Shown here: positions 4,978 through 45,220 of the stretch, piece by piece | How the letters are laid out: each line of letters starts with the position of its first letter | Numbering within the stretch: the first letter of the stretch is position 1 | Virus record (IMG/VR): IMGVR_UViG_3300042549_004104 | Location: 263,353 to 327,352 of that record | Direction: 5' to 3' (one strand) | Source of the DNA: a virus | Lineage: Duplodnaviria > Heunggongvirae > Uroviricota > Caudoviricetes | DNA length: 64,000 nucleotides | The notes under the pieces: model-generated | The model's database searches: none | What the model was told of the DNA's origin: nothing | What the model saw: the letters and a program-made list of their open reading frames with translations, nothing else | Position numbers and translations under genes: made by a program

Positions 4978-4991
4978 TCTGTGATAAATAC

Positions 4992-9647: not shown

Positions 9648-9916
9648 TGTTCGGAAGTAATTACAACGACTATAGAACAAAGTTAGGATATAATCCTAAA
9701 TTATCAACTGAAGCTGAATGGACATTTTACAAAACAGCAACATGGACAAAACAGTTTGCATGGTTGCCTCATCGGTGTAATCTTACTAAAAAATATATTT
9801 GGTTAGAAAATGCGTATAAAGGAACAGCAGAATATAGAGTTGATGATAATCATTTTATAAGTGAACATACATGGCATAATTATGACGAACACATTATTTG
9901 GGAATTACAAAGATGA
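9635..9916 (+). CDS. hypothetical protein
   Basis: ORF overlapping the queE stop. Confidence 0.4.
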   Translation: MGNLMFGSNYNDYRTKLGYNPKLSTEAEWTFYKTATWTKQFAWLPHRCNLTKKYIWLENAYKGTAEYRVDDNHFISEHTWHNYDEHIIWELQR

Positions 9917-10101
9917 TTGAACTACGCTGGTTAATACAAGCTGGGTGGGACGGACCCGAACAAGTATTGCAATATAGACAAAATCGTGATATAATAGACT
10001 ATAGCAGAAAAGATAGTAATGGTTCTTTTCTAAAGACAACTGAAATAACAGAGTGGATCACAGTACCCACAGTAGATGAGGTATGGAATGCAGATTTATG
10101 A
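9898..10101 (+). CDS. hypothetical protein
   Basis: Overlapping, coupled ORF. Confidence 0.35.
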   Translation: MGITKMIELRWLIQAGWDGPEQVLQYRQNRDIIDYSRKDSNGSFLKTTEITEWITVPTVDEVWNADL

Positions 10102-15870: not shown

Positions 15871-16276
15871 CAAATTAAAGAACTTATTCAAGAAAACAGA
15901 AAAGCCTGTTGAATCTAAGAAGCCAACTAAAGCAAAAACTAAGGCTCCAACTAAAGAATTAAGTCTTAAAGAAAAAGCAACACAAGCCGGGGAACCCTAC
16001 ATCAATATTTTAAGTTTAGATATTGATCCCAAAGATATCAACAGCGGTGCATTTGATTTAGACTTTAATGAAATTTTTGTAGCAAGATTAGTCAAAGCTG
16101 GTTACATGATGAGTAAGGATGACAAGGATACTGATATCGTAGATAGATGGTTCCAGCAAGTTTGTAGAAATGTAGTACTTGAGATGTATGAGCAAGTACA
16201 AGCGGATCCCATGAACCGTGACATTCGCCCTATCCAATCACGTGACCTTGGCAATGGACGTACAGAGGTGAGTTAA
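15863..16276 (+). CDS. hypothetical protein with a Lys-rich N-terminus
   Basis: ORF overlapping the uvdE stop. Confidence 0.45.
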   Translation: MFDKLKNLFKKTEKPVESKKPTKAKTKAPTKELSLKEKATQAGEPYINILSLDIDPKDINSGAFDLDFNEIFVARLVKAGYMMSKDDKDTDIVDRWFQQVCRNVVLEMYEQVQADPMNRDIRPIQSRDLGNGRTEVS

Positions 16277-25408: not shown

Positions 25409-25681
25409 ATGACCCAAGTTTATGATGCACTGACAGACAAACAAAAACGTGAAATTCGCATGTATGGCGTTACCGAAGCCGAGATGAAAGAGGCTGTAGA
25501 ACAAAGTATTACTTTTCGTCATAGTGGTCCTGCTATGATGGCAGCTAGTCTGATGAGTGATTGTCAGGAAATGATTGCTTACGACAACGGTGGTTCTTAC
25601 GATTTCATGGTTATCGAAGATGTTCGCCAAGCACTGAATCGTGCTAAGTGGATCCTCTTTGAGTACTGTGACCAAAAGTAA
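25409..25681 (+). CDS. small early-cassette protein
   Basis: Driven by promoter copy 1; AAGGAG SD. Confidence 0.55.
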   Translation: MTQVYDALTDKQKREIRMYGVTEAEMKEAVEQSITFRHSGPAMMAASLMSDCQEMIAYDNGGSYDFMVIEDVRQALNRAKWILFEYCDQK

Positions 25682-26772: not shown

Positions 26773-27428
26773 TGCCTAAATATCAAAAGCCTGTACTAAA
26801 TTTTAATGCTGATGATGTTTGGTCCGCGGCTTGTCAGGCCCAACGAGTCAATGGTGCGTATGTTAAACTGAGTGTGTTGTCCGAATCTGATCCTAGTATG
26901 GATCGAAAATCTAATCGCCAATTGGTAGAATCATTATTGTCAGACACTACACAAATTACCGACGAAAATCGTGAACAGGGTAAAAAGGTTCGTAAGTACT
27001 ATCAAGCATTCACTTTCAAAATTCTTAAAGGAATTAAATTAAGTGAATTTGATAACACTGCAATGCTTATTAGTAATCGTGATGTTATTAATGATAACTA
27101 TGATGTTGCCGTTATTGCTAGTCTACCTAGTTGTTACGAGCGTGGTGTAAAGCGTGATAATGTTGACCAAAGAGTTAAGTTTGCTACCGGTGGATACATA
27201 GGTAATATTAGTGACAAGGTTACAGTAACTATTGAGGTACTGAAAACTGTTTACAGCCAAAAGTGGAATACAAATTATTTTACAGGTATCACAAGTGATG
27301 ACCAAGTAGTATTTTTTGCATACAACGGTACCGGTAAGCTAGATATTGGTGACACCTATACAATTCAGGGTACTGTTAAATCACACCGTGACAACAGTAC
27401 TCAACTGAATCGGGTAAAGTTTATTTGA
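26772..27428 (+). CDS. hypothetical protein (218 aa)
   Basis: ATG overlapping the upstream stop (TAATG). Confidence 0.5.
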   Translation: MPKYQKPVLNFNADDVWSAACQAQRVNGAYVKLSVLSESDPSMDRKSNRQLVESLLSDTTQITDENREQGKKVRKYYQAFTFKILKGIKLSEFDNTAMLISNRDVINDNYDVAVIASLPSCYERGVKRDNVDQRVKFATGGYIGNISDKVTVTIEVLKTVYSQKWNTNYFTGITSDDQVVFFAYNGTGKLDIGDTYTIQGTVKSHRDNSTQLNRVKFI

Positions 27429-27619
27429 CAACATATCCGTTCTATACTATAATACAATCATTCTTTCACACACAGGAGTTTTTTATGCGTAATTTTATCC
27501 TCGGCACATTGTTTGGTATTGTAATTGCTACAGTGGGTTTCACTGGTATTGCTAAATTACTTGACAATGGCGTCAATAAAACTAAGGCAATCGTACAAGA
27601 GCAAGCCAAGGAACAGTAA
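27425..27619 (+). CDS. small membrane protein (1 TM)
   Basis: Hydrophobic core FILGTLFGIVIATVGFTGIA. Confidence 0.45.
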   Translation: MTTYPFYTIIQSFFHTQEFFMRNFILGTLFGIVIATVGFTGIAKLLDNGVNKTKAIVQEQAKEQ

Positions 27620-27711
27620 TGGCTTGGCTTGCTGTACTACTGTTAATATTCTCAGGTCATATTGTCTTTGCATTTATGTTGGCATTTATTATTTTAATTA
27701 TTGAAAGTTGA

Positions 27712-28266
27712 GTGATGAGTTTGTTTATTGTGGTTATTATTTTAACATTCTTAAGCCTTGCTATCACAGCCCTTTGCGGTATAAAGTATATTCATCCTAG
27801 TGCCCATCTTGGATTTAACGTTACTGAAAAATCAAAATTAGTACATCTTGCAAGATTCTGGTGGTGGTTAGTAACAGGATTAAATTTAAAAGAATATTCA
27901 GCCATACATAGACACAATCACGCACATTCTATGACAAAATGGGAAGATGGGATTCCACCTGATAGTGTTTTAGTACGTGCTAAAATGTTTATAGAACAAC
28001 GGCGTAATAAAAATCTTATAGAAGATTATGGTATTGAATCTCCGAACACATGGATAGATATTAACCTATATCAACGATATCATTACTTGGGTCCTGTAGT
28101 TTATTTGTTGTTATTACTATCAGTCTTAGGCACACCGGGATTTATTGTATGGATAGCACAATCAATATTCATTGTATTTTTATGTTCAGAATCTGTCAAT
28201 GCAGATAGAGATTTTTGTAGTAGTGAATTGTTAATGTTTTTGAAAACCAAAAAATATTACGAATAA
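27712..28266 (+). CDS. integral membrane protein (at least 3 TM)
   Basis: Multiple hydrophobic helices. Preceded by a 30-aa hydrophobic mini-ORF at 27619-27711. Confidence 0.5.
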   Translation: MMSLFIVVIILTFLSLAITALCGIKYIHPSAHLGFNVTEKSKLVHLARFWWWLVTGLNLKEYSAIHRHNHAHSMTKWEDGIPPDSVLVRAKMFIEQRRNKNLIEDYGIESPNTWIDINLYQRYHYLGPVVYLLLLLSVLGTPGFIVWIAQSIFIVFLCSESVNADRDFCSSELLMFLKTKKYYE

Positions 28267-28281
28267 TTTAGGAGTTAAAGA

Positions 28282-29619
28282 ATGAGTGCAAGTTGGATTA
28301 ATAAATTAAACGAGAGCGATAGCCGCCTCCACAAAGAAGATGTAATTTTGCAGGCGCTTGAGGCAAGTGTCCTAGGTAGTCGTAATAGTCAGATTTTCTT
28401 GGGCTTTACCAAAGCCTGTTACAACCCTTATGTTACGTTTGGTATTCGTCAAGTGCCCGATACAGTAGGTATAACTGATGCAGAGAATCCTTGGGACGAT
28501 TTTAATGAGTTGATGGTACAACTTAGTCAGCGTAGGTTGACAGGTCATGCCGCACGTGATGCTGTACAAAATATATCTGAACGATTTGATAGTATAGAAT
28601 GGAACACATTTTTAGCTCCAGTATTGCGTAGAGACTTACGTGCCGGTATCAGTGACAAGACAATCAATAAAATTTGTAAAGGTACTGACTATGAAGTGCC
28701 AATCTTTGGTTGTCAACTAGCAACTAATAGTGAAGGTCGCCCTGAGATGAAAGGTATCAAACGTCTTGAACCTAAACTTGATGGCGTTCGTGTATTGTTG
28801 ATGGTTATCCCTGATGAAGAAGGTAACGTTGTTACTATTTGCTTTAGTCGCAATGGTAAACAGTTTGACAACTTTGGTCATATTGAAAATCAAATACGTG
28901 ATAACTTTGTAAAACTTACACACAAAGCCGCAACAAGTAATCTGAGTATGGGCTTTGTAATGGATGGTGAAGTGATTGGTAATACATTCCAAGAACTTAT
29001 GCGTCAAGCACGCCGTAAGACTGATGTGCAAGCAGAGGATAGTGTGTTCAATGTATTTGACATTCTACCACTTGATGCTTTCCGTGAAGGTCATTGGAAT
29101 GCACAACTACACAAACGCATTACTATTTTAGAAGATATGCGTAGTATTATTGATAACATGCCTAACGTTGAATTGTTACCACATATCATGGTTGACTTGG
29201 ATACAGCGGCAGGTAAGGATCAATTAGAGCGATATGCTAAGGATCAAGTTAATCTTGGATTCGAAGGCATTATGATTAAAAACGTAGAAGCCCCATATGT
29301 CTGCAAACGCAGTACAGATTGGATGAAATGGAAACCCACTATCACAGTTGACTTAACTGTTGTTGGTCTTGAAGAAGGTACTGGAAGAAATGCCGGTCGG
29401 CTTGGTGCTCTTGTTTGTGAGGGTGAAGATGACGGTAAAATCATTCAAGTGAATGTGGGTAGTGGATATAGTGATGAGGATCGTAGTGATTATTGGATTA
29501 ACTCTAATAGCATCATTGGTCGTACTGCTGAAATCATGTGTGACGTAATTACTCAAAATCGTGATGGTACTTATAGTTTGCGTTTCCCCCGTTTTGTTAG
29601 ATTTAGGGATGATAAATGA
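28282..29619 (+). CDS. ATP-dependent DNA ligase
   Basis: Nucleotidyltransferase motif I EPKLDGVRVL (KxDGxR), motif IV EGIMIK and motif V DWMKWK. 445 aa, as in phage T4/T7-type ligases. Confidence 0.88.
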   Translation: MSASWINKLNESDSRLHKEDVILQALEASVLGSRNSQIFLGFTKACYNPYVTFGIRQVPDTVGITDAENPWDDFNELMVQLSQRRLTGHAARDAVQNISERFDSIEWNTFLAPVLRRDLRAGISDKTINKICKGTDYEVPIFGCQLATNSEGRPEMKGIKRLEPKLDGVRVLLMVIPDEEGNVVTICFSRNGKQFDNFGHIENQIRDNFVKLTHKAATSNLSMGFVMDGEVIGNTFQELMRQARRKTDVQAEDSVFNVFDILPLDAFREGHWNAQLHKRITILEDMRSIIDNMPNVELLPHIMVDLDTAAGKDQLERYAKDQVNLGFEGIMIKNVEAPYVCKRSTDWMKWKPTITVDLTVVGLEEGTGRNAGRLGALVCEGEDDGKIIQVNVGSGYSDEDRSDYWINSNSIIGRTAEIMCDVITQNRDGTYSLRFPRFVRFRDDK

Positions 29620-29855
29620 ACGATAAATTTAAAATACTGGCTCTGCAGGCCAAAATGGGCACTGCTGACTTTGATGCAGGTAGTTACTATGTTGCCACAC
29701 CAGACCAGATGCAAAAATTCTGCGAGTTGATTATTGCTAAGTGTATCGAGGAAGCAGGTGATCCAGCCGATGGGTTAATTCTAGGCGATACCTGGCACGA
29801 TGGTGTTCGTGCTAGTGTTTGGAGTATTCGACAACATTTCGGAGTTGAAGAATGA
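29616..29855 (+). CDS. HFGVEE-family small protein (paralog 3 of 5)
   Basis: KFCELIIAKC core and C-terminal RQHFGVEE. ATGA-coupled to the ligase gene. Confidence 0.6.
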   Translation: MNDKFKILALQAKMGTADFDAGSYYVATPDQMQKFCELIIAKCIEEAGDPADGLILGDTWHDGVRASVWSIRQHFGVEE

Positions 29856-30061
29856 ACGAAAGAATTAAAGAACTTATTAATGAATCCACCTGCTTCAAAG
29901 AAGGTGATACCGAAGGGAAATACGATATTGAAGTGTTTGACAAAGAAAAGTTCGCCGAGTTGATTGTACGGGACTGTATGCTTATCTGTGAAGATGTTAT
30001 GAAAAAAGATAATTCTGCGCTTGGTTGTTGGAGTGAAATCAAAAGAACATTTCGGAGTTGA
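29852..30061 (+). CDS. HFGVEE-family small protein (paralog 4 of 5); its C-terminus is out of frame relative to the family
   Basis: KFAELIVRDC core. Ends ...EIKRTFRS*, whereas the +1 frame reads KEHFGVEE* up to 30067. There is one extra A in the run atcaaaaga compared with the paralogs. Confidence 0.5.
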   Translation: MNERIKELINESTCFKEGDTEGKYDIEVFDKEKFAELIVRDCMLICEDVMKKDNSALGCWSEIKRTFRS

Positions 30062-30064
30062 AGA

Positions 30065-30364
30065 ATGAATGAACGAATTCGAGAACTTGCTGAACAGGCT
30101 GGAACATACTTTGGAGGAGGAACGACTGATTATTTCGGTGATTATTTGCCTCCGTATGTGTCAATAACTGATCTAGATTTAGAAAAGTTCGCCGAGTTGA
30201 TTGTGCGAGAATTTGTCAGTATCGTGGAAGAAGAAATTAAATTGGTAGAAGAATTCAAATCCACTGCTGTGAAAGCTGATGTGATTAAATGTCATACAAG
30301 TAAAATTTATCATTTTCATAAATTGATTGATAAGAGTAAGAAACATTTCGGAGTTGAAGAATGA
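30065..30364 (+). CDS. HFGVEE-family small protein (paralog 5 of 5)
   Basis: MNERIRELAEQAG N-terminus, KFAELIVREF core and C-terminal KKHFGVEE. Confidence 0.6.
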   Translation: MNERIRELAEQAGTYFGGGTTDYFGDYLPPYVSITDLDLEKFAELIVREFVSIVEEEIKLVEEFKSTAVKADVIKCHTSKIYHFHKLIDKSKKHFGVEE

Positions 30365-30555
30365 TACATTTTAGAACTGATGGTGATACCCTGTACAACG
30401 GTTTAAATATCTATAAATTTTATAAAAGCACTGCGTGGGGATTTGTGTTTAGGTATGGTCCTAGAAACACTCACAATTTAGGAAAAAAGATTTTCATTGT
30501 GCGCTATGATAGAATCAGTCGATTGTTCAACTTGGCCACGTTAGGAGTGGATTGA
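30361..30555 (+). CDS. hypothetical protein
   Basis: ATGA-coupled ORF. Confidence 0.35.
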   Translation: MIHFRTDGDTLYNGLNIYKFYKSTAWGFVFRYGPRNTHNLGKKIFIVRYDRISRLFNLATLGVD

Positions 30556-30776
30556 TGTCTGAATTAGAAATTGCACTGCAAGCACATGACTGGAGCCTAG
30601 ATGGTTGGCGCACACGACCTCAAGTGGATCAGTTGATGAAAGGTCATCCAGATTCTGCAGAGGCCCAGACACTGTGGCAACAGTATTGTCCTTGGAGCAA
30701 CAGCAATGGTGGCTATGTTACATGGTCAAAAAAATTCACCCAAGACAGTGCCACAATGATATGGAGTTATCAATGA
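30552..30776 (+). CDS. hypothetical protein
   Basis: ATGA-coupled ORF. Confidence 0.4.
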   Translation: MMSELEIALQAHDWSLDGWRTRPQVDQLMKGHPDSAEAQTLWQQYCPWSNSNGGYVTWSKKFTQDSATMIWSYQ

Positions 30777-31084
30777 TACCAGATTACAATTTACTGTGCC
30801 AAACAAGGCCCTTGTACAACGAACCATACCACACTGTGAGACCATTGTTGCCAATAAGAATGCAACACGGAGCAGACATGATTGAGTGGGCTGAACAAGA
30901 ATTTGGTCCAGCAGGAAAAAGAGTTCGGGGCATTGTGGGACAAACTGTAAAAGTTACAGAACCTGGGCTACGATACTATGTGGATCCCACTGCATTTTGG
31001 TTTAGACACAGCGAAGACCGCGACTGTTTTGTCGCACATTGGACCAAAGAATTAGAAAATAGCAATGGTTTAAAGATTAAATAA
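30773..31084 (+). CDS. hypothetical protein
   Basis: ATG overlaps the upstream TGA. Preferred over the longer alternative-frame ORF 30605-31084. Confidence 0.4.
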   Translation: MIPDYNLLCQTRPLYNEPYHTVRPLLPIRMQHGADMIEWAEQEFGPAGKRVRGIVGQTVKVTEPGLRYYVDPTAFWFRHSEDRDCFVAHWTKELENSNGLKIK

Positions 31085-31111
31085 TATTACATTTATTAAA
31101 GGAAAAAGTAT

Positions 31112-31414
31112 ATGAAAATTTCAATTGTGTTATTAGCATTATTGTGTAGTTTATCTGCCAATGTACAGGCGCAGGATGCAGTGTCAGGCAAGATCAAATA
31201 TACGAGTTGCAGTGCATGTCACGGTGCTCAAGGTCAAGGCGGAGTAGGTCCAAAACTTCAAGGCCAAAAAGCCGAAGCAATTGTGAAAAAACTCACTGCA
31301 TACAAAAACAAACAAAAAGTTGGACCACAGAGTGAATTGATGTGGGGCATGGCCGGTGCACTATCGTCTGATGATATTAAGAATATTGCCGCATACACAG
31401 CCACGCTCAAATAA
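31112..31414 (+). CDS. class I c-type cytochrome (c552/c553-like), secreted
   Basis: Signal peptide MKISIVLLALLCSLSANVQA. A single CSACHG heme-binding CxxCH motif. Downstream Met-containing LMWGMAG is a candidate sixth ligand. 100 aa. Confidence 0.75.
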   Translation: MKISIVLLALLCSLSANVQAQDAVSGKIKYTSCSACHGAQGQGGVGPKLQGQKAEAIVKKLTAYKNKQKVGPQSELMWGMAGALSSDDIKNIAAYTATLK

Positions 31415-31609
31415 GATTATACAATGATTAAAATCATATTAGCTTTTGTAGTTATTTTTGGTCTATTCTTTTTTGGTATAAAAACCGTTAGAGAAATGAC
31501 CGAAAAAGAACTTTGGTCGGTGACTAAACTATTGACATATAGTGCTATCTGTGCTATACTCACACTTGTATTTTTAATCACTCTTGTAGTTTTATTTTAA
31601 AGGAAAAAC

Positions 31610-32404
31610 ATGAAACGTATTTTTACTCTCTCTATTATCGCCGTAGCAATTTTGGCTACTGGTTGTACACGTATTGAAACCGGCGAGGTTGGTGTGCGTA
31701 TTGGCTTTGACCGACAAATCAAGTCCGGTGAATTATTGCCCGGTTCATTCAATCAAACTATGATTGGTGATGTATTAACATTCCCCATCAAGGACGTCAA
31801 TGTGGTGCTTGAAAACATGACACCTGTTGCTAAAGACAATTCAACAATGAAAGACTTTGATGCTGTGGTGGTTTACAACATCAACCCACAACAAGTAAGT
31901 GAGTTGTACGCAACCAAGAACAAGAGTTTCCACGCTGATTTCAAGGGAGACACTTATGTGATGTACAACTACATTGTACAAAATGCTCGAAATGCTATTT
32001 ACAAATCAGCCCGCAAGTATGAAGCATTGGACATGGCAGACAATCGCACTGACATGGAAAACTTTATCAAAGAAGAAATTGCTCGAAATCTTGGTGAAGA
32101 AAAACTAGATGGATCAATCACAATCAGTCAAGTGATGATTCGTAATGTGTTGCCCAGTGACACAGTAGTTGAATCTGCAAACGCATTGGTTCGTAGCAAA
32201 AACGAATTGAAACAGAAAGAAGTTGAAGTTAAAACTGCCGAAGCAGAAAGTCGCAGAATGGCAGCATTGGCTAATAACTCGGGTGCTAGTATTGCATTCA
32301 TGCAAGCACAAGCTATGTTGAATATCTCAGAAGGTATCAAGAACGGTCAAGTACAGACTATTGTAGTTCCTAGCAACTTCAATGCATTAATGATGCCTAA
32401 ATAA
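31610..32404 (+). CDS. lipoprotein (lipobox LATGC), possibly SPFH/band-7-like
   Basis: AAGGAAA SD. Signal peptide with a lipobox. The fold assignment is weak. Confidence 0.55.
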   Translation: MKRIFTLSIIAVAILATGCTRIETGEVGVRIGFDRQIKSGELLPGSFNQTMIGDVLTFPIKDVNVVLENMTPVAKDNSTMKDFDAVVVYNINPQQVSELYATKNKSFHADFKGDTYVMYNYIVQNARNAIYKSARKYEALDMADNRTDMENFIKEEIARNLGEEKLDGSITISQVMIRNVLPSDTVVESANALVRSKNELKQKEVEVKTAEAESRRMAALANNSGASIAFMQAQAMLNISEGIKNGQVQTIVVPSNFNALMMPK

Positions 32405-32567
32405 CATGTGGGCGTTGATTATTGCACTGATGATGGATACAACGCCCGCCGAGACAAAGTTCACTCGGTTGGCTGAGGTTAAAACATATCAAGAATGTCG
32501 AGACCTTGCCAAGGTGTTGCGGGATCGTGGATTGAAAGCACATTTGTTTTGTGTGGAGCAACAATAA

Positions 32568-32819
32568 ATGGGCAATCAGACCGAATACTTTGAACGCACA
32601 GGATACAAACCTAAGTACTTCATAGGCGACCGAGTATTTGGTAAATATAACAAAATTCCATTTGTAGGTACTGTAGGTAATGATAGGTTGATTAATGAAT
32701 TAGTTGGACCAGAGATTACAATACATCTGGATTTACCAATTAAGATTGACAAAGATATTAAAACCTTTATAATTGTCAAACACAAAGATGTCAAATTATT
32801 AAAAGAAATTAAGGAATAA
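32568..32819 (+). CDS. hypothetical protein
   Basis: ORF only. Confidence 0.4.
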   Translation: MGNQTEYFERTGYKPKYFIGDRVFGKYNKIPFVGTVGNDRLINELVGPEITIHLDLPIKIDKDIKTFIIVKHKDVKLLKEIKE

Positions 32820-32820
32820 T

Positions 32821-33369
32821 ATGGTAACTCTAGTTAAACATGAATGGCATAGCACAGACCGTCAATATACGTATGAACTTGATGAAGATACATTAAGTGA
32901 GATTTATCCAGATATGGATGAAGATGAAATTGCCAATTTAATAGAACAACTTGAAAACGGTGAAGCCGATATTGAAGATATTATCAATGAGGCATGGAAC
33001 AATGATATTGAACTTGATTGGGAGTTTCAATATGATGATTGTTGGACTGACCGCAAAGGTGGTTATGAAGTTACATATGAGTATGGTGATGAGAGTAGTT
33101 ATCATCACGAACCTCCTCCACCAGAGCCAACACACAAGTGTACTAAGTGTAAATGGGTTGGTCAAAATTATGATGCTAATTGGATATGGCCAGAAGATGA
33201 TGAAACTGGTACAAAAGAAGCCAAGAAAGTTTGCCCAATGTGTGATAGTGATACTGAACTAACCGAAGTTGGTCTTAAAGAAGAACAAGAACGTGCTGAA
33301 CGAAAAGCACGATGGGCAAAAGAAGAGGCTGACGAAGGTGCACACTCTGAAAAGATGAATGATGAATGA
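32821..33369 (+). CDS. highly acidic protein with a C-terminal zinc ribbon (CTKCKW...CPMCDS); paralog of 3846-4580
   Basis: D/E-rich. The CxxC..W..G...CPxC(D/N) arrangement is shared with 3846-4580. Confidence 0.55.
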   Translation: MVTLVKHEWHSTDRQYTYELDEDTLSEIYPDMDEDEIANLIEQLENGEADIEDIINEAWNNDIELDWEFQYDDCWTDRKGGYEVTYEYGDESSYHHEPPPPEPTHKCTKCKWVGQNYDANWIWPEDDETGTKEAKKVCPMCDSDTELTEVGLKEEQERAERKARWAKEEADEGAHSEKMNDE

Positions 33370-33577
33370 TGATTTAGCTGGTAAGAAACATGTGTTTGAA
33401 GATGGATCAGTTATTGAAGTGCTTCAAATCAAAATGAGAGACAATAGTATAGAAACTGTACCTATTGTAACTTATACTGTGCAACAAGGTAGAAGTTTGC
33501 CTAGAAAATTAGTTTTGCCATTGAACGAATTTATTAATACATTTGGTCACTTATTTGGAGAAGATAATGGCTTATAA
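33359..33577 (+). CDS. hypothetical protein
   Basis: ORF only. Confidence 0.35.
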   Translation: MMNDDLAGKKHVFEDGSVIEVLQIKMRDNSIETVPIVTYTVQQGRSLPRKLVLPLNEFINTFGHLFGEDNGL

Positions 33578-33794
33578 AACAATTTATACTGAGGTTGAGG
33601 TTGATGTTGACCTTGCAGATTTTGATACTGAGGATTTGCTTGACGAATTAGCAAGTCGTAGTTCACTACCAATGGAAGAAGATTCTCATAGTAAAGAAAT
33701 ACTTGAAGTCATTTATCTAAAACGTAGGTTAGGTAAAGACTATCAATCAGAGTTAGACCAATTGATTTATACAGGATTAGGTAAAGTGTTATAA
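33567..33794 (+). CDS. hypothetical acidic protein
   Basis: GGAG SD before the ATG at 33567. Confidence 0.4.
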   Translation: MAYKTIYTEVEVDVDLADFDTEDLLDELASRSSLPMEEDSHSKEILEVIYLKRRLGKDYQSELDQLIYTGLGKVL

Positions 33795-33826
33795 TACTTT
33801 GACACTTAAACCGAATAAATACACAG

Positions 33827-35449
33827 ATGTTTTCACGTTTCTTATCAATTTTCACATTTAGTAATGCCACACTATTAGTGGCATTAGCACTTAGTACTAT
33901 CGCCGCATGGTATAGTATTGTCGGTTTAACTGCTATCTTTGCCGCGGCAGTTATACCCATTATCATCATGGGTTCAGCACTTGAACTTGCAAAAATTATA
34001 ACAACTGTTTGGTTGCGTAAGTATTGGCAACGTTGCACATGGATAATGAAAGTTTATCTTGTGCCTGCTGTTGTTGCGCTTGCATTATTGACAAGCATGG
34101 GCATCTTTGGTTTCTTAAGTAAAGCACATTTAGACCAAGCTGTTCCATCTAGTGATATTGCTGCCAAAGTCTCTTTACTAGATGAAAAAATTAAAACTGA
34201 ACGTGATAACATTGATGCGGCTAAAAGAGCACTAACACAAATGGATTCACAAGTTGACCAAATGTTAGGTCGTACTGACAGTGATAGGGGTGCAGAACGT
34301 GCTGTTCAAATTCGTAGACAACAGGCTAAAGAACGTAATGCATTACAAAATGATATTGCCAAATCACAAGCCGTTATAGCTAAGTTAAATGAAGAACGAG
34401 CACCAATCGCAAGCGAACTACGTAAAGTAGAGGCAGAAGTTGGTCCTATAAAATACATTGCCGCATTCATCTATGGTGATAATCCAGACGCTAATTTATT
34501 AGAACGTGCAGTACGTTGGGTAATTATTTTACTTGTTATTGTTTTTGATCCATTAGCAATTATGTTAGTGATTGCGGCTAATCAAAGTAAAGATTGGGAC
34601 AAGGAAGAATTAATTGAAGATGATAAAAATATTATGGCTATCATTCCTCCTAAAGAAGAGGATATAGACCTTTTTACCGAAGAAGAAATACCGGCATTAG
34701 ATACTGAACCTATTGCTACATGGCCCTTTCCCTCTGAAAAAACATCCAGTGTAAAAGAAGAACCTATAACTGAATTTCAAATAGCCAAACAAAATGAAAC
34801 TTTTACAGACAATCAACTTACACAATTAAAAGAATTAATTGCATCATTGTCAAAACCTGAGAAACCAGATTATAGTGATATTGAAATTGTACCAGTACAT
34901 ACAAAGTATGAAGAACCTGTTGTTGAAGTACAACCAGAAGAAATAATTGATGTAATAGAACCAGAAGAAGTTATCAGTGATGACACCCCAAACTACGAAG
35001 GTTTTAAAGATCCTAATACCGGAAAGTGGACACAAACAGGTCCTGATTTTGTTCCAATAACATCACAACCATCATTCGTTAAATTTGACGGGGACTATGC
35101 TGAATACAAAGGTAAACATGTACACAAACGTGTTTTATACGATCAGTTTCCTGAATTAAAATTAGAAGAAGATAAACGCCGTTCATCTAATACAAGATTT
35201 GGTACAGATTTTCCAAACACTAAGATGTTAGGTGATGTATTTGTACGTGTTGATGTAACTCCTAATAGAGTATACAAATACAATGGTGCAAAATGGATAG
35301 AAACAAGTAAAAACATAAGTAGTACATATTTGGCTAATCCAGAATATGTTCAATTTTTAATCGGTAAACTTGCGTCAGGTGAATATGATATGGACCTATT
35401 AACCGTTGACGAACAGGATGCAGTTGAAAAGCATTTAAAAACTGGGTAA
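33827..35449 (+). CDS. membrane protein with N-terminal TM helices, a central coiled coil and an acidic linker
   Basis: Three to four hydrophobic helices in the first 100 aa, a heptad-like region (aa 100-200), another TM around aa 215-240, then an E/P-rich segment. Confidence 0.55.
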   Translation: MFSRFLSIFTFSNATLLVALALSTIAAWYSIVGLTAIFAAAVIPIIIMGSALELAKIITTVWLRKYWQRCTWIMKVYLVPAVVALALLTSMGIFGFLSKAHLDQAVPSSDIAAKVSLLDEKIKTERDNIDAAKRALTQMDSQVDQMLGRTDSDRGAERAVQIRRQQAKERNALQNDIAKSQAVIAKLNEERAPIASELRKVEAEVGPIKYIAAFIYGDNPDANLLERAVRWVIILLVIVFDPLAIMLVIAANQSKDWDKEELIEDDKNIMAIIPPKEEDIDLFTEEEIPALDTEPIATWPFPSEKTSSVKEEPITEFQIAKQNETFTDNQLTQLKELIASLSKPEKPDYSDIEIVPVHTKYEEPVVEVQPEEIIDVIEPEEVISDDTPNYEGFKDPNTGKWTQTGPDFVPITSQPSFVKFDGDYAEYKGKHVHKRVLYDQFPELKLEEDKRRSSNTRFGTDFPNTKMLGDVFVRVDVTPNRVYKYNGAKWIETSKNISSTYLANPEYVQFLIGKLASGEYDMDLLTVDEQDAVEKHLKTG

Positions 35450-35527: not shown

Positions 35528-36148
35528 ATGAAACACACACTCACTTTTGTCGCAGTCGTTGCTATTCTAGCAGGTTGCTCCTCAACTAAGACCGCAGTAA
35601 ACCCTGATGAACCTATCAGAAATCAAAAGTTGTCCACAACATTTACAGAGGATAATGTAAAGATTACAACAAATTGTGCATGGTATAAGCCATTTAAATC
35701 TGAATGCGATATAGTTTCTATTGAAGCTACTGCAACTGCATGGACTAATGGTGCAAGTATTGTACAAGTTAATGAAGGTCGTAAGGTTGCTAAAAGCCAA
35801 GCACTAGCAAACGTTAGTCATTTTATCAATACCCAAATCTCAAGTTCACGGATTACAAATGTTATAGCCAAACACGTTGAAAAGGCTAAAGATGAGATGA
35901 AAAATGGTTCAGAAGAATCACAGATGACTGATAAAGAAGCCAAAACAAATAGTACATCGGTTCGTGAAAATTCAAATGATACTGCACGTACAGTAACTAA
36001 TACTATCCGTGAAAATTCTGAATCTATCTTGCGTGGATTTAGAACTGTCAAGGAAGAAAAAGTAGGACAACAAGAAGTTTCAGTTACCGTTCGTTGGGAC
36101 CGCGAAAGTGAGCGAGTTGCTAATGAATTGCGTAAAAGCATGAATTAA
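35528..36148 (+). CDS. lipoprotein (lipobox LAGC)
   Basis: Start taken at MKHTLTFVAVVAILAGCSS with an upstream AAAGG SD. Confidence 0.55.
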   Translation: MKHTLTFVAVVAILAGCSSTKTAVNPDEPIRNQKLSTTFTEDNVKITTNCAWYKPFKSECDIVSIEATATAWTNGASIVQVNEGRKVAKSQALANVSHFINTQISSSRITNVIAKHVEKAKDEMKNGSEESQMTDKEAKTNSTSVRENSNDTARTVTNTIRENSESILRGFRTVKEEKVGQQEVSVTVRWDRESERVANELRKSMN

Positions 36149-36153
36149 TAATC

Positions 36154-37134
36154 ATGCGTTTAATTTTAGCATTGGCAGTTACCCTGTTAACTGCCTGTGC
36201 TACTACGGTAGCACAAAATAAAACTATCCCAATCAGCGTGATAGGTGAAGGAACTACTATCAACGATGCAAAAAACAATGGCTTTCAAAAAGCCATTGAG
36301 CAAGAAGTTGGTGTAGTTCTTTTATCACAAAAACAAATCAAAAATGACAAGCTAAGTAAGGACGAAATTGTATTACATAGTGCAGGTTATATTGACCATT
36401 ATACAGTACTTGATACAGAAAAGGTAAACAACACTTATTACCTAACAATGGATGTTTATGTCAAATCCAGTTCTATCGCAGAAAGAGTGTTAGGGGTATC
36501 AAATAAATCCAAATCTGTCAATGGTGAAAAAATACACGACCAATTTGAAGTATATTCAAAGTACAGAAAAACCGGTGATGAATTGATGAAGGCAGTGTTG
36601 GAAGAATATCCGCATTCTGCATTTATTGTTAAAAATCAAAGAATTGATAGTTCAGGAGTTGTGACAGCAATAGATAAAAATAGAAATCCTGTGTTTATTG
36701 TACCCTTTGAAGTAAGTTATAATTATAACTTTCTAAAATCGTTTAATGAGGCTTTAAAAGCTACAAGCGATAAAGAAATAAAAGGTCATGTCCAACAACG
36801 TAAAATTAGGGTGATTAGTAAAAAACCCGGTAGTGTTTGGGGTAGTACTGATTCATATTTTATCAACGATATACAACGTGATGAATTGATTAAGCAACAT
36901 TTTGTTGGTAAATTATATGTAAAATTAATTGCATTAGACGGAGCAGGGAAGAGATTATTTCATACATGCCAAACCTTTGCCGGGGAAGAAGATACAATTT
37001 ATTTGAACAAAGAATTTACAATTAATGGTAATGACGTTTTTGAAAATGAATTGGCATTTACATTTAAGAAAAATCACCCCATAATGAAAGAAGTCAGTTC
37101 TTATGTATTGACTGTTCATAAAGGAAAATGTTAG
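36154..37134 (+). CDS. lipoprotein (lipobox LTAC)
   Basis: Starts MRLILALAVTLLTACATT. Confidence 0.55.
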   Translation: MRLILALAVTLLTACATTVAQNKTIPISVIGEGTTINDAKNNGFQKAIEQEVGVVLLSQKQIKNDKLSKDEIVLHSAGYIDHYTVLDTEKVNNTYYLTMDVYVKSSSIAERVLGVSNKSKSVNGEKIHDQFEVYSKYRKTGDELMKAVLEEYPHSAFIVKNQRIDSSGVVTAIDKNRNPVFIVPFEVSYNYNFLKSFNEALKATSDKEIKGHVQQRKIRVISKKPGSVWGSTDSYFINDIQRDELIKQHFVGKLYVKLIALDGAGKRLFHTCQTFAGEEDTIYLNKEFTINGNDVFENELAFTFKKNHPIMKEVSSYVLTVHKGKC

Positions 37135-37184: not shown

Positions 37185-38387
37185 ATGTCCGAAGAAAATA
37201 AACCAATAAATTATTGTAGCTTTTGCAACAACCACAAAGATGCTGTTAAAAAACTAGTAGTCGGTGGTTCTGTTGCTATATGTAGTGATTGCGTTGAATT
37301 ATGCCAAGAACTCATAACTGATGGAGTTGTTGAACCTACAACAAAAGAATCCAATCCAGATTACGATCCAGAGTCCATAAAAGAATACCTAGATCAACAT
37401 GTCATTGGACAAGATGATGCTAAAAAGGTTCTCAGCGTAGCCATTGCTAATCACTATAAACGGATAAATAATCCTCCTAAAGATTTAGAAATACAAAAAG
37501 GCAATGTACTTATTGTAGGTCCGACAGGTAGTGGCAAAACCTTACTTGCAAAGACTGCGGCTAAATATCTTAAAGTGCCCTTCGTTGTAGCTGATGCAAC
37601 TAGTTTAACCGAAGCAGGTTATGTAGGTGATGATGTTGAATCAATGATTAACATGTTGCTCAATGCGGCTAACGGTGATAAAGACTTAGCCGAGCGTGGT
37701 ATCGTATTTGTTGATGAAATTGACAAAATTGCCCGAAAGAGTGAGAGTGTTAGTATAACACGTGATGTATCAGGTGAGGGAGTACAACAAGCATTACTCA
37801 AATTAGTTGAAGGTACAGTATGTCGCATAGCAGGAAGCGGTGGCAGAAAACATCCTGGTGCCGACATGCTTGAAATAAACACAAAAAACATATTATTCAT
37901 TGCAGGCGGGGCTTTTGTTGGATTGAAGGAAGTAATAGGAAATAGATTAAATGGAACAAGTATCGGGTTTCAAGCGGCTATCAAAGATAATAAAAAAGAG
38001 GGTGAACTAAGCAAAGTTACCCCTGATGATTTAACAAAGTACGGAATGATTCCAGAATTCATAGGTAGATTTACTACTACAGTTAGTATTGATGAATTAG
38101 ATAAAGAACAGTTGATTCATATCTTAACCGATGTTAAAAATAATTATATCAGCCAATACAAATATTTGCTTAAATTAGATAATATCGAACTTACATTTAC
38201 CCAAGATGCATTGGAACAAATGGCAGAAAATTCATTAACTCTGAAAACAGGGGCTCGTGGATTGCATACAGAAATTGAGCGAGTATTAATGCCGCATATG
38301 TTCCTCACCAAATCATACCGTCAAAATAACATAAAATTGCTAAATATTAACAAGGAGCAGATTTTAAATCCAAAATCTTTGTTATGA
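37185..38387 (+). CDS. clpX: ClpX AAA+ unfoldase
   Basis: N-terminal C4 zinc-binding domain (CSFCNN...CSDCVELC). Walker A GPTGSGKT. GYVG pore-1 loop. Walker B IVFVDEIDKI. IGF ClpP-docking loop (SIGFQAA). Confidence 0.93.
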   Translation: MSEENKPINYCSFCNNHKDAVKKLVVGGSVAICSDCVELCQELITDGVVEPTTKESNPDYDPESIKEYLDQHVIGQDDAKKVLSVAIANHYKRINNPPKDLEIQKGNVLIVGPTGSGKTLLAKTAAKYLKVPFVVADATSLTEAGYVGDDVESMINMLLNAANGDKDLAERGIVFVDEIDKIARKSESVSITRDVSGEGVQQALLKLVEGTVCRIAGSGGRKHPGADMLEINTKNILFIAGGAFVGLKEVIGNRLNGTSIGFQAAIKDNKKEGELSKVTPDDLTKYGMIPEFIGRFTTTVSIDELDKEQLIHILTDVKNNYISQYKYLLKLDNIELTFTQDALEQMAENSLTLKTGARGLHTEIERVLMPHMFLTKSYRQNNIKLLNINKEQILNPKSLL

Positions 38388-38703: not shown

Positions 38704-40593
38704 ATGAGCAAAGTCATCGGTATCGATTTGGGTACCACAAATTCATGCGTAGCCGTTATTGAGAACGGAATCCCCAAAGTAATTGAAAACAGTGAAGGTG
38801 CTAGAACAACACCAAGTATTGTCGCCTATACAGACGAAATTCTTGTTGGTGCTAGTGCTAAACGTCAAGCAGTTACTAATCCAAAAAACACAATTTATGC
38901 AGCCAAGCGTTTGATCGGTCGTAAATTTACCGAAGAAGCTGTACAAAAAGATATCAACTTGATGCCTTACAAAATTGTTGCTAATGACAACGGTGATGCA
39001 TGGGTTCAAGTAAATGAAGATAAACTAGCACCTCCACAAATCAGTGCAGAAGTCTTACGCAAAATGAAAAAGACTGCGGAAGATTATCTCGGTGAAGAAG
39101 TTACACAAGCAGTTATTACTGTTCCCGCATATTTCAATGATAGTCAAAGACAAGCAACCAAAGACGCAGGACGTATTGCCGGTCTAGAAGTATTGCGTAT
39201 CATTAACGAACCTACAGCAGCCGCATTGGCGTATGGTGTAGATAAACAAGACAAGCGTGACCGTAAAGTTGCAGTGTACGACTTAGGTGGTGGTACATTT
39301 GATGTATCTATCATTGAATTGGCAGATGTTGATGGTGACAAACAAATTGAAGTATTGTCCACAAACGGAGACACATTCTTAGGTGGTGAAGACTTTGACC
39401 AACGAATCATGGATTTCTTGGTTGACGAATTCAAAAAGGATCAAGGCGTTGATTTGACTAAAGATGTGTTAGCATTGCAACGACTTAAAGAAGCCGCAGA
39501 AAAGGCTAAGATTGAGTTGAGTAGTTCAGTACAAACAGATGTTAACTTACCGTACATCACCGCAGATGCAAATGGCCCTAAACATTTGAACGTTAAGTTG
39601 ACACGTAGCAAACTAGAACAACTAGTTGAAGAACTTATCAAACGTAGTATCGAGCCTTGCAAGACAGCAATGAAAGATGCCGGTGTAAGTGCTAGTGACA
39701 TTGACGAAATTATCTTAGTTGGCGGCATGACACGTATGCCTAAGGTACAAGAAGAAGTTGAAAAACTATTCGGCAAAGCACCACGCAAAGATGTTAACCC
39801 TGATGAAGCAGTAGCAGTTGGTGCCGCAGTTCAAGGCGCAGTACTAAGTGGTGAGCGCAAAGACGTATTGTTGCTTGACGTTACTCCATTGAGTTTGGGT
39901 ATTGAAACAATGGGCGGTGTAATGAGCAAATTGATTGCTAAGAACACAACAATTCCAACTAAACAAAGTCAAACATTCAGTACAGCCGAAGATAATCAAC
40001 AAGCAGTTACAATCAAAGTGTTCCAAGGTGAGCGTGAGATTGCAAAATACAATAAAGGTCTAGGTGAATTTAACTTAGATGGTATTGCACCAGCACCCCG
40101 CGGAGTACCTCAGATTGAAGTTACTTTTGATATTGACGCAAATGGTATCATGCATATCAGTGCTAAAGACAAAGGTACGGGCAAAGAAAACAAAATCACT
40201 ATTAAGAGTAATAGTGGTTTGAGCGAAAGTGAAATTCAGCAAATGGTTAAAGATGCTGAGGACAATGCAGAAACAGACAAGAAAGCACGTGAATTGATTG
40301 AAGCACGTAATGGAGCAGAATCAACATTGAATGGCTTCCGTAATGACTTTGAAAAGTACAAAGACCAAGTTACAGAAGAAGAACGTACTAAAGCAGAAGA
40401 AGCATTAAAAGCAGTTGAATATGCGATTCTAGGTGATGACGCAACAGTTATCCAAGAATCTATTCCTAAACTATATGAAGCAATTGGTCCTATCACTAAG
40501 GTTAAACACGATGCTGAAGAAGCAGAGAAGAAACAATCACAAGAAGCAGATGTGGTTGATGCAGAAGTTAAAGAGTCCGCAGAGACTGTTTAA
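38704..40593 (+). CDS. dnaK: DnaK (Hsp70) chaperone
   Basis: [22 protein letters not shown] and [11 protein letters not shown] signatures. Full-length 629 aa with the C-terminal substrate-binding domain. Confidence 0.97.
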
Positions 40594-40662: not shown

Positions 40663-41106
40663 ATGACAAGAGAATTAACGTTACGTTCAATAGATATTCC
40701 ATCTATCCATAGATTCGGAATAGGATTTGATTCAATGCTTGATGAACTACTGAGAACAACAAGTCAACCACAAGGTAACTATCCACCGCACAATGTAATT
40801 AAGACAGGAGATGAAACTGTATTAATTGAGGTTGCAATTGCAGGATTTGATGAAGGTGAAATTTCTATCACAGTAGAAAACAATACATTATTGATTTCCG
40901 GTCAACAAAATAAAAATGATCCAATCAATTATGAATATCTACATCGTGGATTGAGTAGCAGAAACTTTATCCAAAAGTTCAAATTGGCTGAACATGTTGA
41001 AGTTATTGACGCATCTATTAAAAACGGAGTTCTTTCTGTCTTACTAGAGCGTAAAATGCCAGAAGATAAGAAACCCAAGAACATTGCAATAAACTACAAT
41101 AAATAA
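40663..41106 (+). CDS. ibpA: small heat-shock protein IbpA/Hsp20 (alpha-crystallin domain)
   Basis: Collinear with E. coli IbpA: GNYPPHNV, AIAGFDEGEISI, NFIQKFKLAEHV, KKPKNIAIN. Confidence 0.92.
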   Translation: MTRELTLRSIDIPSIHRFGIGFDSMLDELLRTTSQPQGNYPPHNVIKTGDETVLIEVAIAGFDEGEISITVENNTLLISGQQNKNDPINYEYLHRGLSSRNFIQKFKLAEHVEVIDASIKNGVLSVLLERKMPEDKKPKNIAINYNK

Positions 41107-41168: not shown

Positions 41169-41477
41169 ATGGCACAAACTGAAACAAGAATTAGAATTAG
41201 ACCCAATTTGAAAGTACCTGAACCCCCAATGTTCAAGGTAATTTATATGAACGATAATCACACTTCAATAGAGTTTGTCGTTAAAAGTTTGATTGACCAT
41301 TTTAATTATACAGAGGATACTGCATCATCTATTACTACAGGAATTCATGAATCCGGTAGTGCAGTTGTTGCTGTGTTGCCCTTTGAAATTGCAGAACAAA
41401 AGGGAATTGAAGTTACACTTGATGCCAGAAACCAAGGGTATCCACTTCAAGTTAAAATAGAAGCCGACGCAACTTAA
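41169..41477 (+). CDS. clpS: ClpS N-degron adaptor protein
   Basis: EPPMFKVIYMNDNHTSIEFVVKSL aligns with E. coli ClpS [24 protein letters not shown]. About 100 aa. Confidence 0.85.
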   Translation: MAQTETRIRIRPNLKVPEPPMFKVIYMNDNHTSIEFVVKSLIDHFNYTEDTASSITTGIHESGSAVVAVLPFEIAEQKGIEVTLDARNQGYPLQVKIEADAT

Positions 41478-44632: not shown

Positions 44633-45220
44633 ATGAGTTTAGTCCCAATCGTTATCGAACAAACAAGCAAAGGTGAGCGTAGTTATGATATCTACAGCCG
44701 CTTATTGCGTGACCGTGTAATTTTGCTTGAGGGCGAAGTACATGACCAAATGGCAAATCTTATCGTTGCCCAATTACTATTTTTAGAATCAGAAGGTGAT
44801 AAAGATATTTCAATGTATATCAATAGTCCTGGTGGTAGTGTAACTGCTGGCATGGCAATCTATGATGCAATGCAATTTGTCAAACCAGAGATTCACACAA
44901 TCGTTATGGGTCAAGCATGTAGTATGGGTAGTTTGCTTGCACAAGCAGGCTCATCTGGCAAACGTTTTATGTTGCCAAATGCACGGCACATGATTCATCA
45001 GCCTTCAGGTGGCGCACGTGGACAAGCAACTGATATGCTGATTCAGGTCAATGAAATTCTTGAAATGAAAAAGAACCTCACAGAAATCTATGTTAAGCAT
45101 AATTCAAAAGGTAAAACTTTTGACGTACTTCATGCTGATATGGAACGAGATAATTTTATGAGTAGCCAACAAGCACTTGATTATGGTCTTGTAGACGAAA
45201 TAGTTACAAAACGCGGTTGA
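44633..45220 (+). CDS. clpP: ClpP serine protease
   Basis: Nearly collinear with E. coli ClpP: [48 protein letters not shown] (catalytic Ser), HQP (His). Confidence 0.96.

Follow-up and report, generated by a model that had tools for sequence, protein, structure and literature searches.

A stretch of 64,000 nucleotides from an uncultured tailed phage from water (positions 263,353 to 327,352 of the IMG/VR record IMGVR_UViG_3300042549_004104), analysed here at its full length and referred to below as the window, contains a gene for a small c-type cytochrome. It is very probable that the phage keeps this gene for a functional, exported protein. The open reading frame was found exactly where a preliminary description of the sequence had put it, with start, stop, strand and length (100 amino acids) all in agreement (Table 1), and the CSACHG motif mentioned there indeed holds the only CxxCH of the precursor (C33-S-A-C36-H37). 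Read from its N-terminus, the precursor consists of MK-ISIVLLALLCSLSA-NVQA|QD, followed by CSACH (residues 33-37) and then by LMWGMAG (residues 76-82). The start codon is preceded by a Shine-Dalgarno-like sequence. A sigma-70-like promoter was sought on the + strand between 30300 and 31112 and none was found, which is weak evidence that the gene is probably transcribed by read-through from upstream genes.

The assignment to the class I cytochromes c holds at the level of profiles, sequences and predicted fold. Both Pfam profiles to which the preliminary description had pointed are passed: the protein scores 39.6 bits against PF00034 (Cytochrom_C; gathering cut-off 21.3, E-value 1.3e-9) and 30.6 bits against PF13442 (Cytochrome_CBB3; gathering cut-off 27). 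The best match by sequence among the solved structures, well beyond chance, is cytochrome c554 of Vibrio parahaemolyticus (2zzs, E-value 8.5e-18), followed by c546/556 of Thioalkalivibrio (8yts, 1.2e-14), c552 of 'Pseudomonas nautica' (1cno, 7.9e-14), single domains of the dihaem cytochromes c4 (6q2u, 1etp and 1h1o, about 4-6e-13) and c553 of Desulfovibrio (1c53, 5e-8), while several cytochrome c6 structures match weakly (3e-4 to 0.2). An AlphaFold2 model built with 35 family members (mean predicted local distance difference test score, pLDDT, 86.5; above 90 over residues 31-100) has the all-alpha class I fold, with helices at residues 34-37, 54-65, 74-82 and 86-96. In a Foldseek search the top matches of the model were 2zzs, 4o1w (a cytochrome c of Colwellia), 1cno and 8yts, with template modelling (TM) scores of 0.79-0.85 on the target, a root-mean-square deviation of about 2 Å and 41-46% sequence identity. 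Chains of cytochrome c4 came next, including 8smr_K, the c4 of the bc1-cbb3 supercomplex of Pseudomonas aeruginosa. Every one of the eight matches with an E-value of 0.001 or better is a small class I cytochrome c.

The residues predicted to hold the haem are conserved in the family. C33, C36, H37 and M77 are invariant in all 120 homologues listed; CSACH aligns with the CxxCH of 2zzs, 8yts and 1cno, and M77, about 40 residues past this motif, aligns with the conserved methionine of c554, c552 and c546/556. The second methionine of LMWGMAG, M80, is kept in just 51% of the same homologues, so that M77 is the likely distal (axial) ligand and the haem is likely to be ligated by His37 and Met77. 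The segment at residues 76-82 is thus present, as had been proposed, but to call it Met-rich is an overstatement, since only one of its methionines is a likely ligand. We infer that the haem is attached covalently at C33 and C36.

Judged from its sequence and its model, the protein belongs with the monohaem class I cytochromes of the c552/c554 type and corresponds to a single domain of cytochrome c4. Like the gammaproteobacterial c554/c552 proteins of known structure (2zzs, 1cno, 4o1w, 8yts) it has a mature part of about 80 amino acids, an N-terminal CxxCH and a distal methionine that aligns at the same position; their precursors bear a signal peptide, and one is predicted here. Each domain of the dihaem cytochromes c4 (6q2u and 8smr of P. 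aeruginosa, 1etp of P. stutzeri, 8uf3 of Neisseria and 1h1o of Acidithiobacillus) also matches it, with E-values of about 4e-13 and TM scores of about 0.67-0.71 on the query. It is not a cytochrome c4 proper, which needs two domains and two CxxCH motifs where the phage protein has one of each, and it is basic rather than acidic. No equivalog cut-off of NCBIfam was reached: the scores are 20.6 bits against 135 for cytochrome c6 (PetJ, NF045930), 28.9 against 61 for SoxX (TIGR04485), 17 against 122 for PedF and 19 against 148 for MoxG, far under the cut-offs for the c550 and c551 equivalogs as well, and the weak similarity to SorU also remains below its cut-off. Of the three classes suggested earlier (c552, c553 and c6), class I membership as such and the c552 kinship are therefore supported, together with a likeness to single c4 domains, whereas c6 is not.

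The first 20 residues have the three regions of the signal peptide that had been predicted: MK, a hydrophobic core of 14 residues and a V-Q-A|Q-D cleavage site. In the alignment of homologues residues 3-19 show a conservation of 35-60%, yet they are hydrophobic throughout; A20-Q21 is invariant across the family and D22 is kept in 97% of its members. The N-terminal helix of the AlphaFold2 model is of low confidence. Pairwise Nei-Gojobori comparisons with viral homologues, at a dS of about 0.8-2.5, put the ratio of nonsynonymous to synonymous substitution (dN/dS) of the mature part at 0.05-0.15, whereas dN and dS are about the same in the leader. A constrained mature part combined with a relaxed leader is the signature of a cleaved signal peptide ahead of a functional domain, and together with the cleavage site it argues strongly for Sec export of the phage cytochrome. 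Purifying selection on the protein is strong and its ligands are intact. Anchoring as a lipoprotein via C12 was considered and rejected: there is no lipobox (a leucine precedes C12), C12 is conserved in 58%, and the AQA|QD site is invariant.

Table 1. Features of the cytochrome locus, and a further redox gene of the window (coordinates within the window)
Feature	Position	Strand	Remarks
Shine-Dalgarno-like AAAGGA	31098-31103	+	8 nt before ATG; read from the sequence
Cytochrome c gene	31112-31414	+	ATG at 31112; 100-aa precursor; stop codon included
Predicted Sec signal peptide, residues 1-20	31112-31171	+	MK / ISIVLLALLCSLSA / NVQA, cut after A20
Predicted mature monohaem class I cytochrome c domain, 80 aa	31172-31411	+	net charge +6, pI about 9.5
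CSACH haem-attachment motif, residues 33-37	31208-31222	+	C33, C36, proximal ligand H37
Met77 codon, predicted sixth (distal) haem ligand	31340-31342	+	
Two-helix membrane protein, 58 aa	31424-31600	+	9 nt past the cytochrome gene; no Pfam match; possible operon partner
SPFH/Band 7 lipoprotein (lipobox LATGC)	31610-32404	+	Band_7 64.4 bits; phrog_200 'lipoprotein', E-value 9e-33
Fe/Mn superoxide dismutase	60974-61525	+	Sod_Fe_C 69.8 bits, Sod_Fe_N 28.9 bits; no signal peptide; 30 kb from the cytochrome gene

We conclude that the window belongs to the genome of a jumbo phage, so far uncultured and about 360 kb long, as indicated by its phage genes, its PA5oct-like relatives and the viral contigs that share its sequences. 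It is gene-dense, with nearly all genes on one strand, and several of its products have counterparts in PHROGs: a DNA ligase of the ATP-dependent phage type (phrog_114), a homing endonuclease, an endolysin-like domain, a lipoprotein and an RNase H/flap exonuclease (phrog_107). With its homologues in the jumbo myoviruses PA5oct, GAP32, CBB and their relatives this exonuclease shares 46-49% identity, and a 526-amino-acid protein encoded at 273-1853 matches essentially only PA5oct-like phages, which makes the PA5oct/Rak2-like jumbo phages the nearest cultured relatives of the window. A viral contig of 4.5 kb in IMG/VR (locus L001) is 100% identical over the cytochrome region. The exact cytochrome occurs on 27 contigs, the longest of 359,563 bp, and has phage genes on both sides; the exact DnaK of the window is found on the same 359,563-bp contig, and close relatives of this DnaK lie on contigs of 327-362 kb. 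No DNA-level match to region 29000-34000 was obtained by megablast against 50,697 GenBank phage records, and the 64 kb of the window contain no phage structural genes.

Relatives of the cytochrome are widespread in metagenomes and viral contigs. They were found in 225 metagenomic clusters (formed at 90% identity, E-value below 1e-5) with top identities of 81-94%, where the source labels read 'cytochrome c' or 'cytochrome c553'. At least 216 stretches in IMG/VR encode a relative, and 58 distinct viral loci could be distinguished at 97% nucleotide identity. Cellular homologues were searched for in 185,579 bacteria and archaea, with one genome per species. They are 40-54% identical overall, and the best of them (49-54%) belong to Luminiphilus, a gammaproteobacterial metagenome-assembled genome (MAG), Halomonas and Thioalkalivibrio; the closest Thioalkalivibrio homologue is a two-domain c4-type protein. 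The genes next to the Luminiphilus and Thioalkalivibrio homologues (ComM-like, GST and DUF3080 genes) are uninformative. In a neighbour-joining tree, which is weakly resolved as the protein is short, most viral sequences group together and apart from most cellular ones, and the nearest cellular neighbours are gammaproteobacterial c4/c552-type proteins.

The base composition of the gene is ameliorated to that of the phage: its GC content is 42%, and 35% at third codon positions (GC3), compared with 36 +/- 4% and 28.5 +/- 7% for the genes of the window and with 57-65% for the cellular homologue loci that were checked (L043-L047). Since the gene has cellular homologues, is flanked by phage genes on either side and is maintained by selection, it can be regarded as an auxiliary metabolic gene. 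This is what the preliminary description had proposed, and the wide distribution, the purifying selection, the ameliorated composition and the position inside a phage genome all agree with it.

Cultured phages seem to lack the family. A tblastn search of the 50,697 cultured-phage records with the cytochrome protein found none, and PHROGs holds no family for it. When the search was relaxed (E-value up to 5), the sole match with a cultured 'phage' (E-value 0.05) was to positions 26953-30174 of ON170320.1, 'Ralstonia phage YO188_1' (locus L128). This match was rejected: the region carries a high-GC dihaem c4 gene beside one for an outer-membrane-like protein, in an UNVERIFIED_ORG record of 34 kb labelled 'Inoviridae', and it is most likely host chromosome DNA. 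One relative, 70% identical, is found on a 23,423-bp contig (NZ_JBBAKG010000090.1, locus L042) of a RefSeq MAG named 'Haliscomenobacter sp.'. The contig also holds a phage-linked COQ7 gene and a homologue of the window gene at 25409-25681, and its cytochrome nests in the phage clade, so that it is probably a jumbo-phage contig that was mis-binned into a bacterial MAG, although it might also be a hint of a host association.

The close clade of the phage cytochrome, comprising 23 distinct loci with at least 59% identity, is set apart by its charge. All 21 mature domains compared have a net charge of +5 or +6 and an isoelectric point (pI) of 9.4-9.6, and the lysines K29, K48, K60, K65, K67 and K100 are invariant among them. 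The nearest cellular homologues are mostly acidic (e.g. -5 in Luminiphilus and -4 to -5 in Thioalkalivibrio), and viral homologues at a greater distance (40-58% identity) range from acidic to neutral. A basic close clade next to acidic cellular relatives indicates that the docking surface has been remodelled in the phage clade, and the shift suggests that the protein has adapted to another docking partner, an acidic one. Cytochromes c that are basic generally bind to acidic patches, found on cytochrome c1 and on the CuA domain of aa3-type oxidases.

Recurrent gene neighbours were counted in the close clade within 8 kb of the cytochrome gene; because many of the contigs are short, the counts are lower bounds. 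The commonest immediate neighbour, directly downstream in 14 of the 23 loci, encodes a membrane protein of the DoxX family (28.5 bits in locus L004, above the Pfam cut-off; 22.2 bits in locus L127, just below it). Directly upstream, 13 loci have a gene for a membrane protein of 145 amino acids without a Pfam match. A class II aldolase and the small subunit of ribonucleotide reductase (RNR) were each found in eight loci, glutaredoxin in seven, the large RNR subunit in six and the ubiquinone synthesis protein COQ7, encoded directly downstream of the cytochrome, in four. Less frequent are IscA (three loci), IscU (two), AhpC, an AhpD-like protein and superoxide dismutase (two each), and CoxA, CoxB and an SdhA-like protein (one). 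No sox gene occurs among the recurrent neighbour clusters, although no search aimed specifically at sox genes was made. An example of the cassette is L004 (IMGVR_UViG_3300019093_000572, 8840-12553), with the order AhpC/TSA, 145-amino-acid protein, cytochrome c, DoxX, class II aldolase, an unassigned gene and an AhpD-like CMD protein.

The single locus with oxidase genes, L127, is formed by the first 10.6 kb of a JGI contig of 335,294 bp (3300057100 Ga0574185_000007). Its block at 267-7349 has phage genes on either side, and the order is cytochrome c (74% identical to that of the window), COQ7, DoxX-like, serine hydroxymethyltransferase (SHMT), CoxB, CoxA, SdhA-like, RNR small subunit, glutaredoxin and CHAP. 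The RNR shares 90% identity with its counterpart on viral contig L026, and the SHMT 81% with its counterpart on viral contig L018, which indicates that the oxidase block is an insertion into phage DNA. Its CoxB has an intact CuA motif and lacks a C-terminal cytochrome c domain. The closest cellular CoxB available, a Ramlibacter protein of 391 amino acids, does have such a domain fused to it, and its haem site CVACHGAQGQGGVG resembles the site CSACHGAQGQGGVG of the phage cytochrome. No close relative of the L127-type CoxA was found in IMG/VR and its nearest database matches are from cellular Burkholderiales; the oxidase therefore appears to be rare in phages, and a haem-copper oxidase on a phage-like contig is unusual.

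The neighbourhood in the window itself is different. The order of cytochrome, 58-amino-acid membrane protein and SPFH lipoprotein (Table 1) is unique to the window's own group, to which the Band 7 neighbour is confined among the 58 distinct viral loci. The small membrane protein takes the position that DoxX has in the relatives, with no detectable similarity to DoxX, and its homologues occur on several contigs of 351-356 kb. A terminator on the + strand was not found between its gene and that of the cytochrome. The database cluster of the cytochrome has a representative of 58 amino acids, and the 58-residue members of the cluster (P0242 and P0244) are homologous to the membrane protein encoded next to it; evidently the products of both genes were merged, an artefact of the database. 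Immediately ahead of the cytochrome region stand three small genes (29616-29855, 29852-30061 and 30065-30364) which, with two others at 5722-5940 and 5937-6173, form a tandemly amplified family of five paralogues of 69-99 amino acids that share the motif 'MNE(R/K)(I/L)(R/K)E...(K)FAELI(V/I)(R/K)(E/D)C'. Further downstream, two adjoining genes at 35528-37134 encode predicted lipoproteins of 206 and 326 amino acids (lipoboxes LAGC and LTAC) without a Pfam match, so that, with the SPFH lipoprotein, several envelope-targeted proteins are encoded near the cytochrome.

The explanation that we consider best overall, and which has a somewhat better than even chance of being right, is that the cytochrome is a periplasmic electron carrier provided by an auxiliary metabolic gene, with a respiratory shuttle as the favoured form of it. 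Proteins of this kind normally carry electrons in bacterial respiration, and the phage probably supports or alters the energy metabolism or the oxidative-stress chemistry of its host while infecting it. According to this explanation a jumbo phage of about 360 kb would make a soluble cytochrome c while infecting a diderm, respiring bacterium. The precursor would be exported by Sec and cut after Ala20, and the cytochrome c maturation system of the host would join haem to C33 and C36 in the periplasm. The resulting carrier of 80 amino acids, basic and rich in lysine, would take electrons from the bc1 complex or another donor facing the periplasm and hand them to a haem-copper oxidase of the host. 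In this way respiration, proton-motive force and ATP supply could be kept up through a long infection as host protein synthesis falls. The respiratory role is suggested by the kinship with c4 and c552, by the presence of a c4 in the structure of the bc1-cbb3 supercomplex (8smr), on which the proposed role is modelled, by the linkage to COQ7, by the oxidase of L127 and by the charge shift. We infer the redox partners and the physiological benefit from these indications, and for respiratory electron shuttling as the main job of the protein the chances are about even.

Several observations weigh against the respiratory role. An oxidase is present in just one of the 58 distinct viral loci, and the 64 kb of the window contain no redox partner, quinone gene or oxidase gene. 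Searches of the window by tblastn with COQ7, the DoxX-like protein, CoxA, CoxB, SdhA, SHMT and RNR of L127 were negative; profile hidden Markov models (HMMs) of the 145-amino-acid protein and of DoxX found no copy in it; and Pfam scans of 30 more of its proteins yielded no haem, Ccm or respiratory genes. Moreover, the most common neighbours in the relatives (the 145-amino-acid protein, DoxX, RNR, glutaredoxin, AhpC/AhpD, superoxide dismutase and IscU/IscA) fit redox or iron homeostasis at least as much as respiration. The 'manipulation of electron flow' that the preliminary description had attributed to the phage may be real, but the genes around the cytochrome in the relatives are explained nearly as well by an antioxidant role as by a respiratory one.

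Such an antioxidant role is the main rival; we consider it possible, if rather unlikely. As a member of a redox-defence set of the phage, the cytochrome would supply a periplasmic cytochrome c peroxidase with electrons or take up electrons from periplasmic superoxide, and in this way would hold down oxidative damage in the infected cell, together with the superoxide dismutase of the phage and, in relatives, AhpC/AhpD and DoxX. The cassette of L004 combines the cytochrome with AhpC/TSA, DoxX and the AhpD-like CMD protein, loci L019-L022 have a superoxide dismutase gene 2-3 kb upstream (55-58% identical to that of the window), a rubrerythrin/ferritin-like gene lies near the cytochrome in L125, and AhpC is also found close to distant viral homologues. 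The Isc neighbours in the relatives, and the Fe/Mn superoxide dismutase that the window itself encodes, as had been noted before and as both of its Pfam domains confirm (Table 1), are in line with this. Ferricytochrome c oxidises superoxide, the c552 of Marinobacter (P. nautica), a top structural match, gives electrons to cytochrome c peroxidase, and in mycobacteria DoxX, SodA and SseA make up an oxidoreductase complex. However, AhpC, AhpD and superoxide dismutase each accompany the cytochrome in only two of the 23 close-clade loci, no export signal was noticed on them, which would place them in a different compartment, the dismutase gene of the window is 30 kb away, and a peroxidase gene was seen in no locus. 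Improbable, in our view, is a carrier dedicated to a specialised periplasmic enzyme (nitrite or nitrous-oxide reductase, thiosulfate or sulfite dehydrogenase, or a PQQ-dependent alcohol or methanol dehydrogenase) or to a route from cytochrome c to quinone via DoxX. The weak NCBIfam likeness to SoxX, PedF, MoxG and SorU could be read in this way, as could the fold likeness, also returned by Foldseek, to the cytochrome domains of TsdBA, flavocytochrome c and cd1 nitrite reductase. The DoxX family is named for a subunit of a thiosulfate:quinone oxidoreductase, and the frequency of DoxX as immediate neighbour and the linkage to COQ7 would suit the quinone route. The NCBIfam scores are nevertheless far under their cut-offs, no gene for such an enzyme adjoins the cytochrome in the viral loci examined, and the window is without DoxX.

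That the gene is not a working phage gene at all, but mis-assembled or mis-binned cellular DNA or a decaying passenger, is very improbable indeed. The metagenomic origin of the sequence, the absence of structural phage genes from the window, the 70%-identical copy in the 'Haliscomenobacter' MAG and the sole cultured-'phage' match, most likely host DNA, might raise such a doubt. It is countered by the exact protein on 27 contigs with phage genes on both sides, by the distribution over at least 58 distinct viral loci, by the strong purifying selection with every ligand intact, by the ameliorated GC content, by the distance to the closest cellular homologues (only 49-54% identity) and by the probable phage nature of the 'Haliscomenobacter' contig itself. 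Returning to the periplasmic electron carrier, one may go further and see in the cytochrome the shared centre of a 'terminal respiratory / periplasmic redox' module borne by phages. This extension we rate as unlikely. If true, a lineage of jumbo phages of about 350 kb would have evolved a basic cytochrome c of its own, mostly placed between the 145-amino-acid protein and DoxX and often near COQ7. Rather than just supplementing a host protein, such phages would equip the cell with a respiratory chain whose end is partly encoded by the virus and receives its electrons from the phage cytochrome as dedicated donor; at least one member would have added CoxA, a CoxB stripped of its fused cytochrome c and an SdhA-like protein, and the phage of the window would be a reduced version with the carrier only.

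As for the host, the exported cytochrome and the several lipobox proteins imply a diderm bacterium with a cytochrome c maturation system. This agrees with the Gram-negative host that had been suggested, whereas nothing points to the phototrophic alternative mentioned with it. The window has no tRNA genes and so gives no host clue from that side, and since the best 120 matches of its DnaK are all metagenomic and phage-like, these give no host signal either. The CoxA of L127 is 83-84% identical to that of Polynucleobacter and 81-83% identical to those of Paucibacter, Hylemonella and Limnohabitans, and the GC content of this locus is 44%; genomes of Polynucleobacter have a GC content of roughly 45%. 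Based on these identities and the GC content, a freshwater member of the Burkholderiales is a plausible host for the L127 phage. The host of the window phage may be a different one, as the GC content of the window is lower (36%).

Taken as a protein, the phage product is an ordinary class I cytochrome c; its gene adds to the electron-transport auxiliary genes already known from phages. From its counterparts among the c554/c552 proteins it differs in being encoded by a phage and in belonging to a basic clade (+5/+6), whereas the cellular relatives are mostly acidic. Cyanophages have genes for the carriers plastocyanin (PetE) and ferredoxin (PetF). The concept is the same, namely a small soluble carrier, borne by the phage, that presumably sustains the electron flow of the host, but the protein families, the cofactors and the host physiology are other ones, haem c needs maturation by the host, and the relatives of the phage point to heterotrophic Burkholderiales as hosts, not to cyanobacteria. 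Photosynthetic electron transport proteins encoded by cyanophages have been described (PMC5082946). Closer to respiration are the phages of ammonia oxidisers: amoC-phages carry a NapC/NirT multihaem cytochrome c (bioRxiv 10.64898/2026.06.18.733297), and the Nitrosospira phage roc1 carries bc1 subunits and CcmEFH (bioRxiv 10.64898/2026.05.02.722434). These, too, are large freshwater or soil phages with respiratory haem c proteins that have been read as auxiliary metabolic genes. Their proteins, however, are membrane-anchored multihaem or complex-bound ones, nearly identical to host genes, whereas the cytochrome described here is soluble and monohaem, forms a phage clade of its own and is at most about 54% identical to the cellular homologues found. 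No cytochrome is mentioned for the freshwater 'moraphages' with DnaK (PMC12619734), and in the open-access literature we found no account of phages with a family of soluble monohaem cytochromes c.

Among the phage auxiliary genes that serve electron transport, those for photosynthesis in cyanophages have received much study and those for ordinary aerobic respiration hardly any. A soluble, respiratory-type cytochrome c that is conserved across at least 58 viral loci, many of them from jumbo phages, and that is missing from 50,697 cultured-phage records and from PHROGs is of interest for its breadth and strong conservation, for its inverted charge and for the recurrent cassette it forms with two uncharacterised membrane proteins (the 145-amino-acid protein and DoxX). 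If the proposed role is correct, large phages of abundant aquatic heterotrophs would tune the periplasmic respiration or the redox defence of their hosts, and carbon turnover and oxygen use in infected cells would be affected. The protein is small and easily expressed, and the inversion of charge with respect to the cellular homologues provides a simple handle for finding its partners.

Other gene sets of the window stand apart from the cytochrome. A set for protein quality control comprises ClpX (37185-38387), DnaK (38704-40593; a family that is large in metagenomes), Hsp20 (40663-41106), ClpS (41169-41477) and ClpP (44633-45220). The genes at 5015-9647, which encode GTP cyclohydrolase I (FolE, 5015-5725), a cytidylyltransferase-like protein (6766-7236), a PTPS/QueD-like protein (7316-7879), a 2OG-Fe(II) oxygenase-like protein (8109-8621) and a radical SAM QueE-like protein (8805-9647), look like a pathway for 7-deazaguanine (preQ0-type) DNA modification. 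A dCMP deaminase, a 5'-nucleotidase and glycosyltransferases are encoded as well, and so is a UV-damage endonuclease (UvdE, 14851-15870; Pfam 131 bits) that is also kept in the related locus L009. The homing endonuclease of 454 amino acids (16276-17640; phrog_655, E-value 3e-49) lies between a small gene and a helicase-like gene; it appears to be a mobile insertion, for L009 and other relatives do not have it there. Finally, the superoxide dismutase gene is overlapped at its end by 4 nt by a gene for a protein of 545 amino acids (61522-63159), the C-terminal 140 residues of which match endolysin/chitinase-like PHROGs.

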